Assembly (NCBI GenBank): GCA_964440935.1
Contig: CAYTTY010000012.1
Span: 12,873-76,872, forward strand
DNA from: an uncultured Ignavibacteria bacterium
Lineage (GTDB): Bacteria; Zixibacteria; MSB-5A5; WJJR01
DNA length: 64,000 nt
Reading direction: 5' to 3'
Shown: positions 1,116 through 8,390 of the stretch, piece after piece
Position numbering within the stretch: position 1 is the first letter of the stretch
Layout: every line of letters begins with the position of its first letter
Made by a program: the position numbers and the translations under genes
The notes under the pieces: model-generated
Told to the model about the DNA's origin: nothing
The model's input: the letters and a program-made list of their open reading frames with translations, nothing else
Database searches by the model: none

Positions 1116-2810
1116 TTAGGACGATTCCGCCAGGACTTGCTCCAATGGGATGATCCCGTTTTTCATCTTATCGATAGCGGCCATTCGCAGGGTCATCATG
1201 CCCTCCTTGACCGCCTGTTGCCGAATTTGCTCCACCGAGGCGTCTTCCAGGATCATGCGTTCGATCGCCGTCGTCACCGGCATCACCTCGAAAATGCCGG
1301 TCCGTCCCGACATGCCGGTCTGATTGCAGTCAGAGCAACCCACCCCTTCAAAAATCTTTAAGTCGGCGATTTCCCCGGGCTCCAATGCCAGTTTCTCCAA
1401 GTGTTCATCGGTGACGCTCACTTCGTGTTTACACGACGAGCAAATCTTGCGAATCATTCGCTGGGCCATAATCAACTTCGTCGCCGATGCCACGAGATAT
1501 CCTGGAATGCCCATGTCGATGAGACGCGCGACCGTTGAGGGTGCGTCGTTCGTGTGTAATGTGGACAGCACCAAGTGGCCCGTGAGTGCCGCACGAATGG
1601 CAATCTCGGCCGTCTCGGTATCGCGGATCTCACCGACCATGATGATGTCGGGGTCCTGTCGCAAGAACGAACGCAGCGACTTGGCAAAAGTCAGACCGAT
1701 TTCGGTGCGGACGGCGACCTGATTGATTCCATCGAAGTTGAACTCGACCGGATCCTCGGCGGTCATGATGTTCACATCGCCGCTGTTCAATGTTTTCAGT
1801 GCTGAGTACAGGGTTGTCGTCTTACCCGATCCGGTTGGCCCGGTTACCAGGATCATCCCAAACGGCAGAGTGATCGCGTGCTGGAAATTCTTGAGCGCCA
1901 GGCCCGGGAAACCAAGCCGTGTCAGATCAGTCATGAGCGACTGCGGATCCAGAATTCGCATCACGACCTTCTCACCGAAGATCGTGGGCAACACCGACAC
2001 TCGCAGATCGATGGCGCGCTTGCCCATTTTGACTTTGATGCGTCCGTCCTGCGGCAGCCGGCGTTCGGAAATGTCGAGATCGGCCATGATCTTGACACGT
2101 GAGACAATGGCCGCACGGTATTTGAACGGCAGCGGCTCGGTCTCTTTCAAAACGCCGTCGACACGGTAGCGGACGCGGATGCGTTTTTCGTACGTCTCGA
2201 TATGAATGTCCGACGCGCCACTGCGAATCGCTTCCATGATGAGACCGTCCACCAGCCGCACCAGGGGTTTGTCCTGGACCTGAGATTGCAGGTCGGTTTC
2301 GTTGAAAGAGTCGTCAGTCTCGATGACTTCGAGTCCGCCCTCTTCCTCTTCCAATCCCTTGAGGAGATCGCCAATCCCACTGGCGTTTTTGTAGTACTGG
2401 TCAATGGCCTTCGTGATCGCCCGTTCAGGTGAGATAACGGGCTGAATGGTACAGCCGGTGATGAATTTCAGGGCATCGATGACATAAATATTGTGGGGAT
2501 CGCTGATCGCGACCACCAACGTCTTGTTCAGTTTGGAAATGGCGATGACGTTGAAGCGACGCGCGATGTCCTGCGGAATTAACTGAACAACTTCGGGATT
2601 GAGTTCAACGTCGGAGAGGCGCAATGCGCCGATGTTTAATTGGCGTCCGATGAAATGGGTGAGTTCATCTTCATCGCCGATGGCGCCCATCTTGAGCAGG
2701 ACATCGACGAATTTCTCGTGGGATTCCTTTTGCGTCTCAAGCGCCTGGGTGAGTTGGTCGGGCGTGATCTTGCCCGCTTTCACCAGCATATGGCCAAGTT
2801 CCTGAGACAT
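1116..2810 (-). CDS. pilB: Type IV pilus assembly ATPase PilB (GspE family)
   Basis: 564 aa. N-terminal GSPII_E_N-like region followed by a GspE ATPase core with Walker A GPTGSGKTTT and a C-terminal CxxC...CxxC zinc motif (CSSCKHE...CSDCNQTG). Confidence 0.85.
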   Translation of the reverse strand: MSQELGHMLVKAGKITPDQLTQALETQKESHEKFVDVLLKMGAIGDEDELTHFIGRQLNIGALRLSDVELNPEVVQLIPQDIARRFNVIAISKLNKTLVVAISDPHNIYVIDALKFITGCTIQPVISPERAITKAIDQYYKNASGIGDLLKGLEEEEGGLEVIETDDSFNETDLQSQVQDKPLVRLVDGLIMEAIRSGASDIHIETYEKRIRVRYRVDGVLKETEPLPFKYRAAIVSRVKIMADLDISERRLPQDGRIKVKMGKRAIDLRVSVLPTIFGEKVVMRILDPQSLMTDLTRLGFPGLALKNFQHAITLPFGMILVTGPTGSGKTTTLYSALKTLNSGDVNIMTAEDPVEFNFDGINQVAVRTEIGLTFAKSLRSFLRQDPDIIMVGEIRDTETAEIAIRAALTGHLVLSTLHTNDAPSTVARLIDMGIPGYLVASATKLIMAQRMIRKICSSCKHEVSVTDEHLEKLALEPGEIADLKIFEGVGCSDCNQTGMSGRTGIFEVMPVTTAIERMILEDASVEQIRQQAVKEGMMTLRMAAIDKMKNGIIPLEQVLAESS

Positions 2811-2878: not shown

Positions 2879-3361
2879 CTAATCTTTGAAGACGTCATCG
2901 ATCTTCGAGCCGGCCGACTCAGCAAACTGCGGATCCAACTCCGGTGCATTGTTTTCGGCCTGTGCACGCGTGAGAAGCTCTTTAAGCTTGTCGCTGGTTT
3001 CCTTGGCGTACAAACGCACCATCCCAATGGTCGTGCGATCATCGAAGACGATCGCGAGAATGCATCGTTCGCCGACCAGTGAAATGTGGATATGATCCTT
3101 GTGTCCCTGGTGAAACAGCACCGAGAATTCTGGTTCCCCGACGAGGCGGGCGATCTCCTTGGTCGACGCAAAGCTGCCCGCCAACAGGGCCGACAACGCG
3201 GTGGTATCGAGCGATTGCGTAAATCCCTGGCGTGTGATCAAGTGGCCATCCTTGTCGACCAGCAAGGCACACTTGGCTTCCGCCTTTTTGATCATCCGCA
3301 AAATGATCGCGTTGATCTGATCAATTTGTTCTTCCATCAGGACAAATGACTGAGACGACAT
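2879..3361 (-). CDS. mglB: MglB, roadblock/LC7-domain GTPase-activating partner of MglA. The ORF extends to 3391, but the ATG at 3361 (MSSQSFVLMEEQ...) avoids overlap with mglA.
   Basis: Strong similarity to Myxococcus MglB across its length (VLMEEQIDQINAI...LLVDKDGHLI...DTTALSALLAG...EFSVLFHQGHKDHIHISLVGERCILAIVFDDRTTIGMVRLYAKETSDKL). The acidic C-terminal tail is typical of MglB. Confidence 0.8.
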   Translation of the reverse strand: MSSQSFVLMEEQIDQINAIILRMIKKAEAKCALLVDKDGHLITRQGFTQSLDTTALSALLAGSFASTKEIARLVGEPEFSVLFHQGHKDHIHISLVGERCILAIVFDDRTTIGMVRLYAKETSDKLKELLTRAQAENNAPELDPQFAESAGSKIDDVFKD

Positions 3362-3372
3362 CGGCCACCTCC

Positions 3373-4365
<993 letters not shown>

Positions 4366-4398: not shown

Positions 4399-4737
4399 TT
4401 AGATTCGCTGTAACTGTTCGATGGCATTGCGAATTTCGAGGCGCACCAGACCGATGTTCACGCGCGGTTCGGTGGTCACGACCAACGTTCCGATTCCCGC
4501 GTTGGACAGGAACATCTTATGATTGTCCGACTCGACCGTCACCTGAGCCAGATCGCCGCTTTTCATTCCATCGAGTGATTTGCGCACGGTGGCGGCAATC
4601 GAGGACGCCAGCGCGCCCACCGTATCGTCGTCGGTCTGACTGGTCAGATCCGCCGCAATGACGATCCCGTCATTGCCGACAACGAGGCTTCCGGTCACGC
4701 CACTCGTTTTGTTGAGCTGTGCCAATACGTCGTACAT
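4399..4737 (-). CDS. Roadblock/LC7-domain protein (second MglB/MglC-like paralog)
   Basis: 112 aa with the single-domain roadblock pattern (GSLVVGNDGIVIAADL...VGALASSIAATV...DLAQVTVESDNHKMFLSNAGIGTLVVTTEP). Its ATG overlaps the stop of the upstream gene (ATGA). Confidence 0.65.
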   Translation of the reverse strand: MYDVLAQLNKTSGVTGSLVVGNDGIVIAADLTSQTDDDTVGALASSIAATVRKSLDGMKSGDLAQVTVESDNHKMFLSNAGIGTLVVTTEPRVNIGLVRLEIRNAIEQLQRI

Positions 4738-4739
4738 CG

Positions 4740-5714
4740 TCAGACCTCCTCCAGGACCGCGTAGCTGTGGCGGCGCCGCTGGATATACTTGAGCATCATG
4801 TCGCGTGCTTGTGTCAGGCGCACACCGACCAAATCATCAACCTCGTAGTCGGTCAGCACGCCCAACCAGAAGTCATCAACCGCTTCCAGAATCACCCGTC
4901 CGGCGCTGGAGCGTATCTCGATGCGCTGCGGTTCCACTTCTCCACCGCGCGAAAGGCAGTACTGATTGAAACGGACCATCTCGATGGAGGTCGGCGCCCA
5001 ATACTCGACCGCCCCGGTGTAATCCTGGCGTTGCCAGAACGCCAATGGCAGCCCTTCGCGATCGACCATCCAGCACATCCGAATGCCGGTATATTCGCCG
5101 ACGTAGGCGACCGCCGCATCGAGATCGGGCGTATTGTCGGGGGCTGCTCCGTGTGATGCGGTTCGTCCGGCTGAATTCGCCGGTCGGGTGGCGACCAGTT
5201 TCGGCGCCGCTGTAACCGTGCCTGTGGTGCTTGATCCCGAAGGGCGGGGCGTCGAGTAGCTCGTGGACATGGCGAACCGCGGCTTTGGCGCCGGCTCGGC
5301 ATAGACGATCTTCCAAATCGCTCTGAGGACTAAGGGCGCCGAAAACACATGCAAAAGGACGGTGAACGGATACGACCACATCGCCATCGACGCCGTGTCC
5401 TGAAATCCGTAGTTGTTATTGAATGCGGCCAAACCGGCGAACAGCAGCGCGCACACCAGGCGATAAACCACCGTCATTCCTGAGGCAATGAACCGTTGCG
5501 ATCCTTTTAGCGTGGGCACCAGGAACAGAAGGGCCACGAAGTAGATCAGCCATTCGACCAAGACGATCGCCGGATGGAATTTGAAGTGGCCCAGACCAAC
5601 CGTTTTCGGATACAGCAGGAGTGGCAGGACGGCCAACACACCGGTCCACAAGATGATCTGACGGACGGCGACAGCGGTGCCGGGTCGTATGGATTGTCGT
5701 CTGGGCATAGTCAT
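4740..5714 (-). CDS. Membrane-anchored protein (about 4 predicted TM helices) with a C-terminal roadblock/LC7-like domain
   Basis: The N-terminal ~150 aa are hydrophobic (LWTGVLAVLPLLLY..., LIYFVALLFLVPTL..., LVCALLFAGLAAF..., FTVLLHVFSAPLVL). Then comes a Pro/Ser/Thr linker, followed by a roadblock-like domain of ~130 aa (GIRMCWMVDREGLPLAF...RIEIRSSAGRVILEAVDDFWLGVLTD). Confidence 0.5.
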   Translation of the reverse strand: MTMPRRQSIRPGTAVAVRQIILWTGVLAVLPLLLYPKTVGLGHFKFHPAIVLVEWLIYFVALLFLVPTLKGSQRFIASGMTVVYRLVCALLFAGLAAFNNNYGFQDTASMAMWSYPFTVLLHVFSAPLVLRAIWKIVYAEPAPKPRFAMSTSYSTPRPSGSSTTGTVTAAPKLVATRPANSAGRTASHGAAPDNTPDLDAAVAYVGEYTGIRMCWMVDREGLPLAFWQRQDYTGAVEYWAPTSIEMVRFNQYCLSRGGEVEPQRIEIRSSAGRVILEAVDDFWLGVLTDYEVDDLVGVRLTQARDMMLKYIQRRRHSYAVLEEV

Positions 5715-5728
5715 AACCTTCTATCGCA

Positions 5729-6631
5729 TCACGGTTCTGAACTCTCATCCGGGTCTGAATGGTTTGTCCTGTCGGAGCGGTCGATGCGCGCATACCAGTC
5801 GATTGCGAAGCGCCGTGCCTCGCCGTAGGACATGCCAGATTCTCCGATCAATCCGAGAATCATCGCGTCAAAACGGCCGCACCAGAGTTCACCCTGATCG
5901 GTTTCAACGCGCAGTTCACCGAGTGATCCACTGCTTATCCCTTTGAGGTGGGAGTCAATCTCACGGAACGCATCGAGAAGCGCGTTCACCGCAGGATCGC
6001 CGGTGGTTGTCGCATCGACGGGATAAATCACGTTCGCATTCTCATCCCAAGCGAACACCGATGTCACACCCCGCAACCGGCGGATCTGGTCGGCCCATTC
6101 CGCCCACGTTAGCGTTTCGTCGGGACGGGGGGTCGTGGCTGTGTCGACCATCTCGGGCTGAGTGTCGGCGGTATCGCCAATGTCGGTCGAATCGATGGTT
6201 TGCGCCGGTCGGTCACGCACTGCCTTCATTCGCGCCACGAGATCAATCACGGCCGGGTTACGCCGCTCAGCTCGCTGCAATCGTTCGATGATCGGCTGCG
6301 CCGCGGACGCGTCACCCATTTCAATGAACAGTTCCGCTTCGAGGAGATCGGTGCCCCGTGTCGAACCATCAATCTCGATCGCTTTGCGCAGCGAAGCCAT
6401 TGCATCGGGCAACATCTTTTGATGCAAAAACAATTTGGTCATTACGAGATGCGCCGGCGCATAGTCAGGATGATGTTTCAGTCCGCTTTTGCAGACGGCG
6501 AAGGCGCGTCCGAACTCACCTCGACGGCGATAGGCCTCAGCGAGGGCCGCAAAGACTTGTGAATGGGGATTGTCGGCCAGTATCGCGAGACACCGCTCGA
6601 TGCGCTCATCGAGTTCCGCTACAGTTATCAT
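5729..6631 (-). CDS. TPR-repeat protein fused to a C-terminal roadblock/LC7-like domain
   Basis: The N-terminal ~140 aa are TPR-like helical repeats (AEAYRRRGEFGRAFAVCKSGLKHHPDYAPAHLVMTKLF...). The C-terminal ~110 aa fit the roadblock fold pattern (VTSVFAWDENANVIYPVD...GELRVETDQGELWCGRFDAMILGLIGES). Confidence 0.5.
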   Translation of the reverse strand: MITVAELDERIERCLAILADNPHSQVFAALAEAYRRRGEFGRAFAVCKSGLKHHPDYAPAHLVMTKLFLHQKMLPDAMASLRKAIEIDGSTRGTDLLEAELFIEMGDASAAQPIIERLQRAERRNPAVIDLVARMKAVRDRPAQTIDSTDIGDTADTQPEMVDTATTPRPDETLTWAEWADQIRRLRGVTSVFAWDENANVIYPVDATTTGDPAVNALLDAFREIDSHLKGISSGSLGELRVETDQGELWCGRFDAMILGLIGESGMSYGEARRFAIDWYARIDRSDRTNHSDPDESSEP

Positions 6632-6822: not shown

Positions 6823-7221
6823 TCACCCGGCCAGCAAGCGCCGCATCCGCGCGGCTCCCACTAAGATGATGAGCACGGCCCCCAATCGGAGGACACCAAC
6901 CCAGAAATCCGACATCGGCAGGAGCCCCGCTTCGGCTCCGAAACCGGCCATCTGTGCCAATCCGAGGACGAGAAATCCCAATGTGAACCACTGCCAGCCC
7001 TGAGCAATGCGGCCGCCGCGAACAGAATTGTACACCTTGAATGCGGTCAGCGCACAGGCCGCGGCGACCAACAACAGCGCGAGTTCAACAAGTGCGCCAC
7101 CGCTGAACATTCCGCCACCCTGCGATTCTGTTTCGGCCACGGCCATCGATGGATACAGGAGAACCACGGCTGGTCCAGCCAGTCCCAGCAGCCTATGTGT
7201 GATTCGGCTCGACATAATCAT
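6823..7221 (-). CDS. Small integral membrane protein, function unknown
   Basis: 132 aa with 3-4 hydrophobic segments. Its start overlaps the stop of the upstream PATAN gene (7218-7221), consistent with translational coupling. Confidence 0.45.
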   Translation of the reverse strand: MIMSSRITHRLLGLAGPAVVLLYPSMAVAETESQGGGMFSGGALVELALLLVAAACALTAFKVYNSVRGGRIAQGWQWFTLGFLVLGLAQMAGFGAEAGLLPMSDFWVGVLRLGAVLIILVGAARMRRLLAG

Positions 7222-8390
7222 GCTCCCATCAGCGCCCGTCGAAATTCAAGGGCGATATCGTAACGTTCGGCCAGGTCGCGCTTTTGCGCTAAGAGGAAGG
7301 TGACATCTTTTTGTATAGCAGCTCGAACCTGACCGGCGACATGAGGACTGATCAGATCGCGCAGTGCCATCACCTTGTCGGCCAGCAGGCGATTCGCCAA
7401 ATCCAACACCCGATGCAGGCGGATTGGATCGGCGATACGCTTGACGACTTCGCGGAACTCCGACTCCGAACCGCCGCTGGCGGCGGTCAGAATACCGACC
7501 AACTCGGCATGATTGTCGGTGCATTCCGGCGGTACGGTGAAGAAGATCCGGTCTCCGTGAGCACCGAGATATTCCGTAAGCACCTTGTGCACGGACCCGA
7601 GCGAGTGTGAGTACAGCCGGTACACCAAATCGTAGAGCTGGAACTCCTCCGATCGACGTGAGACACGTTCTGCAGCGTCCGGACATTCTTCCAACAAATG
7701 GTTTTGCAGCAGTTTGTGGAGCGACTTCGACGCGGCATATTCACCGTGCGAACCCGATACGAGGATGTCGTTAATACTGCGTTCCCCATTGATGGCGGAG
7801 AGCACTTCGATGTCCTCAGCGGTCAGCGTGATCTCCTCATTTTCGAGCTGAGGCGATGGTGTCAGCCGCAGCACAGTATCACCATCAGGCAATGAATGTG
7901 CGACTTCCATATACTCATCGAACCGACGCGCGCCTTCCATCATCACATTGAGTGAATTCAACTCGACCGGGATATGAGTCGCATCGGGCGCCTCACTATC
8001 GACGAACTCAAATTGGCCATCCGGGTAGCTGAAGACCGAGTAGACCATCTCCTCGACTTGCGCCCGCAGGGCGTCCACCACCTTGCTCCGGTCGCACAGT
8101 CCCAGCTCGATCAATGTGTGTCCCAGACGTTTCCCATTGGCGGATTGACGCTTCAATGCGCGGTCAAGCTCATCGGCACTCAACACACCACGGCGGATCA
8201 ACAACTGGCCGAGCCGTTCTTCTTCAATGTTCGAATCGGATGATGCGGCGACAACGTCGCCACCCTTGAAGTAGATGTACTTCGCTCCCTGAGGCCGGAA
8301 CAGACGCAAAACACCGGTCTTCTTTCCGGTAGCAATCAGTTGGAGGATATCTCCAAATGAGAGTGTGCGCAGATTCCCTGTGAATCCCAT
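7218..8390 (-). CDS. PATAN/DUF4388-domain protein, the type reported to co-occur with MglA-like GTPases and roadblock proteins
   Basis: The N-terminus LRTLSFGDILQLIATGKKTGVLRLF matches the DUF4388/PATAN signature (G.L....l.dllQ.l....ktG.L.l). The remainder is alpha-helical. No receiver domain is evident. Confidence 0.6.
   Translation of the reverse strand: MGFTGNLRTLSFGDILQLIATGKKTGVLRLFRPQGAKYIYFKGGDVVAASSDSNIEEERLGQLLIRRGVLSADELDRALKRQSANGKRLGHTLIELGLCDRSKVVDALRAQVEEMVYSVFSYPDGQFEFVDSEAPDATHIPVELNSLNVMMEGARRFDEYMEVAHSLPDGDTVLRLTPSPQLENEEITLTAEDIEVLSAINGERSINDILVSGSHGEYAASKSLHKLLQNHLLEECPDAAERVSRRSEEFQLYDLVYRLYSHSLGSVHKVLTEYLGAHGDRIFFTVPPECTDNHAELVGILTAASGGSESEFREVVKRIADPIRLHRVLDLANRLLADKVMALRDLISPHVAGQVRAAIQKDVTFLLAQKRDLAERYDIALEFRRALMGA

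Follow-up and report, generated by a model that had tools for sequence, protein, structure and literature searches.

Here, we describe two adjacent genes whose products are, as judged from structural models, genuine fusions with a C-terminal roadblock fold. In the 4TM-roadblock protein this domain follows four membrane helices, and in the TPR-roadblock protein it follows TPR repeats. Both genes lie in an operon with mglA, mglB and type IV pilus motor genes. We propose that their products are accessory roadblock subunits of an MglA/MglB module, specific to Zixibacteria and associated with the membrane, through which the PilB/PilT/PilC motor is regulated, a reading to which we assign a probability of about one half. 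The stretch of DNA analysed, 64,000 nucleotides from a genome of an uncultured member of the Zixibacteria, is referred to below as the window.

Architecture of the two fusion proteins

Both open reading frames called in the initial annotation are real and lie on the minus strand. They and their parts are as follows.

4740..5714, minus strand: 4TM-roadblock gene, ORF of 324 aa, stop codon 4740–4742 included
5304..5714, minus strand: N-terminal membrane region, residues 1–137, four hydrophobic helices, predicted N-in/C-in
5130..5303, minus strand: disordered variable linker, residues ~138–195, with pLDDT <50 at 143–192 and gap-rich, poorly conserved alignment columns
4743..5129, minus strand: C-terminal roadblock domain of the 4TM protein, residues ~196–324
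5729..6631, minus strand: TPR-roadblock gene, ORF of 300 aa, stop codon 5729–5731 included
6212..6631, minus strand: TPR module, residues 1–140, with three TPR motifs between an N-terminal helix and a capping helix
5783..6115, minus strand: roadblock domain of the TPR protein, residues ~173–283, from AlphaFold2, Foldseek, profile and hhalign

In the 4TM-roadblock protein, hydropathy places hydrophobic segments at residues ~14–35, 44–71, 75–99 and 110–137, and the same four segments are seen in most orthologues. AlphaFold2 models helices at residues 11–34, 48–65, 71–100 and 104–137. Conserved hydrophobic helices of ~20 residues, together with a positive-inside bias (K+R of 7.3 inside versus 1.4 outside), mark this region as polytopic and inner-membrane. 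The same charge distribution predicts that the roadblock domain is cytoplasmic, on a flexible tether of ~55 aa. Two intramembrane residues, E54 of TM2 and R85 of TM3, are invariant among the orthologues, which suggests that the membrane region does more than anchor the protein passively and may serve, for instance, in contact or sensing.

Residues 198–323 of the 4TM protein are modelled as alpha-beta-beta-(alpha)-beta-beta-beta-alpha, with low confidence for helix alpha-2 (pLDDT 52–56). Roadblock domains dimerise via helix alpha-2 and strand beta-3, and this helix is their usual dimer interface. When the protein is compared with the PDB using Foldseek, 52 matches have E<=1e-3; all 50 of the 50 matches listed are roadblock proteins (LAMTOR2/3, Asgard roadblock, CvnB, MglB), and target TM-scores reach 0.77 among these listed matches. 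The Pfam model Robl_LC7 gives a sub-threshold score with the window protein alone (E 0.015, 15.5 bits versus a cut-off of 23); it is matched by 23/23 family members, and the family profile matches PDB roadblock sequences with E 7e-9.

The TPR-roadblock protein is modelled with a mean pLDDT of 84.8. Eight TPR-type helices (residues 4–140; pLDDT ~84–97 across 10-residue blocks of the module) are followed by a disordered linker and, at residues 176–280, by a canonical alpha-beta-beta-alpha-beta-beta-beta-alpha domain. The repeats are recognised by Pfam TPR_19 (E 1.9e-12, 47.8 bits, cut-off 25) and TPR_14 (E 3.6e-8, 33.8 bits, cut-off 23.5), and TPR models match 81/81 family members. Foldseek pairs this part with consensus TPR proteins (E 5e-5), TTC0263 and the TPRs of OGT. 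Conservation within the protein is highest here, and most of the invariant and nearly invariant alignment columns fall in this part. For the C-terminal domain, Foldseek returns the dynein roadblock 3l7h (target TM-score 0.70–0.76) and the Asgard roadblock 7yh1, and the domain profile matches PDB roadblock sequences with E 1.3e-6. Robl_LC7 finds no match in the window protein and matches 7 of 81 family members (best E 3.8e-8).

By topology, by structural similarity and by sequence match at the family level, both proteins belong to Roadblock/LC7 (PF03259, profilin-like clan). The initial annotation had proposed a roadblock C-terminus fused to a polytopic membrane region in one case and to TPR repeats in the other, and AlphaFold2, Foldseek, Pfam TPR models and family profiles bear this out. 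It had also reckoned with C-terminal domains of some other fold; AlphaFold2 and Foldseek show the roadblock fold.

Searches yield 23 close homologues and 169 representative clusters for the 4TM family, and 84 homologues and 28 genomic loci for the TPR-roadblock protein. Both fusion features are far beyond chance and recur in 169 sequence clusters for the 4TM form and >80 for the TPR form. This conservation also bears on whether the 4TM fusion could be an artefact of annotation or assembly, in which a membrane gene has been wrongly joined to a roadblock gene. Such an origin could be imagined given that other Zixibacteria have a soluble orthologue of 133–148 aa. However, the ORF is uninterrupted in the window and in 27/27 loci that reach the gene, across independent assemblies; ~130 representative clusters are full-length at 300–350 aa, matching profile positions ~10 to 310; conservation extends to the four helices and to the invariant residues in them; and operons with the soluble form contain no separate 4TM gene. 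We consider an artefact effectively refuted by this conservation, and its probability close to nil.

The soluble orthologue fills the slot of the 4TM-roadblock gene in the operon. Because it takes the same position elsewhere in Zixibacteria, the 4TM membrane anchor is a lineage-specific addition or loss; and because those organisms manage with a soluble protein, anchoring of this subunit is optional within the phylum and not essential to the module. Anchored and soluble orthologues in one slot amount to a natural experiment. The C-terminal tails of these proteins (LEEV, EAHYV, SHV; in others ...LLVN and ...SLSVK) are not conserved across lineages. We considered the idea that the tail may dock into the neighbouring TPR protein, as EEVD peptides do with Hop-type TPRs; the lack of conservation in the tail does not favour it.

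A conserved operon with MglA, MglB and a pilus motor

The genes surrounding the two fusions in the window are as follows.

7218..8390, minus strand: PATAN (DUF4388/PatA_N) protein, Pfam DUF4388 3.9e-31, conserved at the head of the cluster
6823..7221, minus strand: small membrane protein of 132 aa, from hydropathy, position conserved in all loci
4399..4737, minus strand: Robl112, a stand-alone 112-aa roadblock protein, Pfam Robl_LC7 3e-16
3373..4365, minus strand: MglA orthologue of 330 aa, residues 3–193 matching M. xanthus MglA with E 2.4e-78
2879..3391, minus strand: MglB orthologue, longest ORF 170 aa, NCBIfam MglB 1.6e-25
1116..2810, minus strand: PilB type IVa pilus assembly ATPase, TIGR02538 2.4e-213, above cut-off

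Gene order is fixed in 28/28 species-representative loci (one genome per species, contig ends allowed for): ComEC, PATAN, small membrane protein, TPR-roadblock, 4TM-roadblock, Robl112, MglA, MglB, PilB, PilT. PilC and a PAS histidine kinase come after PilT in related loci, and the order from ComEC to PilT is kept even where identity to the query protein falls to 28–35%. The locus set includes records titled 'uncultured Ignavibacteria' or 'Acidobacteriota'. Neighbouring genes are spaced 2–14 nt apart in the window and overlap by 4–8 nt in a related locus (L001), distances that are typical of the subunits of a co-translated complex. When the cluster was scanned for promoters and terminators, the 191 nt that precede the TPR gene among them, counts were no higher than in shuffled sequence. 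The operon, conserved phylum-wide in Zixibacteria, brings together the Ras-like switch MglA/MglB and the motor of the type IV pilus. Both fusion genes lie beside mglA, which encodes a true MglA and belongs to the same fixed-order operon. Neither the tie to pilB-pilT-pilC nor the optional anchor had figured in the initial annotation.

MglA consists of a G domain (residues 1–195) and an extension of low complexity in which P, S, T and A abound. This extension is variable and, among 29 full-length orthologues, ends in a conserved polybasic-aromatic tail (encoded at 3376–3441 in the window). We considered whether this tail is an amphipathic helix. Its helical hydrophobic moment (0.39 versus 0.33 +/- 0.16 in shuffles) lends no support, and we therefore call it a polybasic-aromatic tail; it would fit a module working at the membrane. 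Group 1 MglA proteins are defined by an intrinsic arginine finger, a TVPGQ G3 motif and a coupled MglB (PMC4316618). Aligned to M. xanthus MglA, the operon protein conserves the intrinsic Arg (...DRTL...) and the (Y)TVPGQ G3 motif, and these signatures, with the adjacent MglB, identify it as a true group-1 MglA. The MglB matches that of M. xanthus with E 4.4e-36 over residues 15–169 and that of T. thermophilus with 5e-18; its true start is probably Met11, at 3361.

Robl112 is kept in every locus; in the window its gene begins 2 nt past the stop codon of the 4TM-roadblock gene. Its best PDB sequence match is the Asgard roadblock 7yh1 (4e-7); MglB matches with 0.24. The gene of the 132-aa membrane protein lies upstream of the TPR-roadblock gene, and its product has no significant Pfam or NCBIfam match. 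The PATAN protein contains, at residues 59–111 (nt 8058–8216), an inserted tandem MshEN-type c-di-GMP-binding motif (NF053729: 3.7e-16, 58.6 bits versus a cut-off of 38), and PilB has an N-terminal MshEN c-di-GMP motif (1.4e-12).

Possible roles of the fused roadblock domains

The initial annotation had suggested that the fusions localise 'GAP/GEF-type activity', and one reading of the data follows it: the fused domains would be MglB-type GAPs or GEFs for MglA, with the anchor or the TPRs placing catalysis at the membrane or on a scaffold. Here the comparisons among roadblock domains point the other way. The C-terminal domains of the 4TM and TPR proteins align with each other with an hhalign probability of 97% (E 3.6e-11), and these two domains and Robl112 show mutual probabilities of 96–97%, versus 16–91% to MglB. 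Against the MglB family of the operon itself, the values are 66% for the 4TM domain and 16% for the TPR-protein domain. Profile matches to MglB sequences are marginal (E 0.013 and 0.07, respectively, versus 7e-9 and 1e-6 for generic roadblocks), and neither fused domain has orthologue-level similarity to a characterised MglB. In profile searches, the two domains and Robl112 are nearer to the Asgard roadblock and LAMTOR2 than to MglB; the same three profiles find no sequence-level match to M. xanthus MglC at E<=1. The operon, moreover, already has a bona fide, canonical MglB (E 4e-36), and MglC is precedent for an MglB paralogue that need not be a GAP (PMC4719450). We regard the catalytic reading as unlikely, and this part of the initial annotation is not supported in the form given. 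Since the fused domains resemble generic roadblocks and each other far more than MglB, and a true MglB and MglA are present, they are probably not GAPs; by analogy with MglC or Ragulator, it is more likely that they are scaffold or tether subunits than catalytic ones.

Roadblock domains act as dimers, on which GTPases or further roadblock dimers can assemble; MglB2-MglA, MglC-MglB and LAMTOR2/3-LAMTOR4/5-RagA/C are precedents. On this basis, we propose a stacked platform that would be built from all four roadblock proteins encoded in the operon. The 4TM subunit would tether it to the inner membrane beside the pilus machine, and the TPR subunit would recruit a further partner, for which the PATAN protein, MglB and PilB are candidates. 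The platform might then set where MglB turns MglA off, or where MglA-GTP stays. In mirror-tree and partial Mantel analysis, the two fused roadblock domains show no sign of co-evolving with each other (partial r = -0.05), in a comparison in which many pairs are significant and which is non-discriminating.

It is also conceivable that both proteins work with PATAN and the pilus motor largely independently of MglA, one example being a PilB adaptor that responds to c-di-GMP, and that linkage to mglA reflects a shared target only. PATAN and roadblock domains are known to co-occur, a preprint (bioRxiv 10.1101/2021.06.11.447907) reports that cyanobacterial PATAN response regulators bind PilB, and the PATAN protein and PilB of this operon both carry MshEN motifs. 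The strongest partial distance correlations, which are exploratory, likewise involve PATAN (0.62 with the N-terminal part of the TPR protein, 0.46 with the N-terminal domain of the 4TM protein), but the mirror-tree signal is unspecific. In addition, the two fusion genes lie between PATAN and mglA-mglB, with gaps of a few nucleotides toward the mglA side, and the well-studied roadblock proteins recovered in our searches all partner an NTPase, either GTPases or dynein. These points make an MglA-independent role improbable, and we favor accessory subunits of the MglA/MglB module.

A bolder version of the accessory-subunit proposal is a eukaryote-like membrane organisation, in which MglA would carry a hypervariable linker and a polybasic-aromatic membrane tail, and its regulators would sit on a Ragulator-like stack of four roadblock proteins. 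One of these, integral to the membrane, would sense or contact the pilus machine through its conserved intramembrane Glu/Arg pair. This version strikes us as rather doubtful. If true, it would represent an independently evolved, fully bacterial, membrane-scaffolded small-GTPase system.

Comparison with known systems

The bacterial roadblock partners of MglA in the literature consulted, MglB and MglC, are small soluble proteins. As the initial annotation supposed, the present architectures are absent from the described Myxococcus system: in the literature consulted on that system and on prokaryotic MglA/MglB diversity, only single-domain roadblocks and receiver-roadblock fusions are reported, and neither a 4TM- or TPR-roadblock fusion nor the other features set out above are described. 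Because GTPases >240 aa were left out of earlier surveys, which also depended on Pfam thresholds, both a tailed MglA and divergent roadblock fusions would have escaped them. MglB, the GAP of MglA (PDB 6hjm, 3t1r), is without a membrane or TPR domain, and the fused domains are only marginally similar to it. MglC, a roadblock paralogue without GAP function, binds MglB (PMC4719450, PMC10329633). The M. xanthus protein (PDB 7cy1) is small, soluble, single-domain and encoded away from mglBA, whereas the proteins described here are fused to 4TM or TPR regions and encoded directly beside mglA.

TPR partners of MglA that control pili are known, namely SgmX in M. xanthus (PMC7519303, PMC7668184) and Bd2492 in Bdellovibrio (PMC3983030). 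Like these, the TPR-roadblock protein combines TPRs and a link to MglA with a context of pilus formation or PilB localisation, a likeness by description. However, SgmX and Bd2492 are larger (353–1031 aa) and encoded outside the mglA operon, and the accounts used here describe no roadblock domain in them. In the actinobacterial conservon (CvnA-D), the membrane component is a separate histidine kinase, there is no pilus link, and the GTPase is of group 2, without an intrinsic arginine finger, whereas MglA here is of group 1. PATAN domains do occur near MglA/MglB (PMC4316618). How MglA is tied to the membrane and the pilus is known in detail from Myxococcus alone, where the lineage-specific RomR/X/Y, SgmX, FrzS and SopA take part. 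The present operon, conserved across a whole uncultured phylum, would be a different and compact solution: a membrane anchor or TPR adaptor is built into additional roadblock subunits, and a PATAN protein with a c-di-GMP motif and pilB-pilT-pilC are encoded beside them.

Finally, Ragulator consists of four roadblock domains held on a membrane as a platform for small GTPases (PMC10933270). The operon likewise encodes four roadblock-domain subunits, whose assembly into one complex is putative, and the fused domains count LAMTOR2 among their best matches in both sequence and structure. There are clear differences. The Ragulator anchor is a separate, lipidated protein, LAMTOR1, whereas transmembrane helices are here fused to a roadblock domain; and the Ragulator GTPases are Rag heterodimers with roadblock domains of their own. 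We take the resemblance as one of analogy and shared fold, not of demonstrated orthology. Even so, the operon may offer a bacterial counterpart to eukaryotic roadblock platforms anchored in a membrane, in a defined set of seven or eight proteins open to reconstitution.

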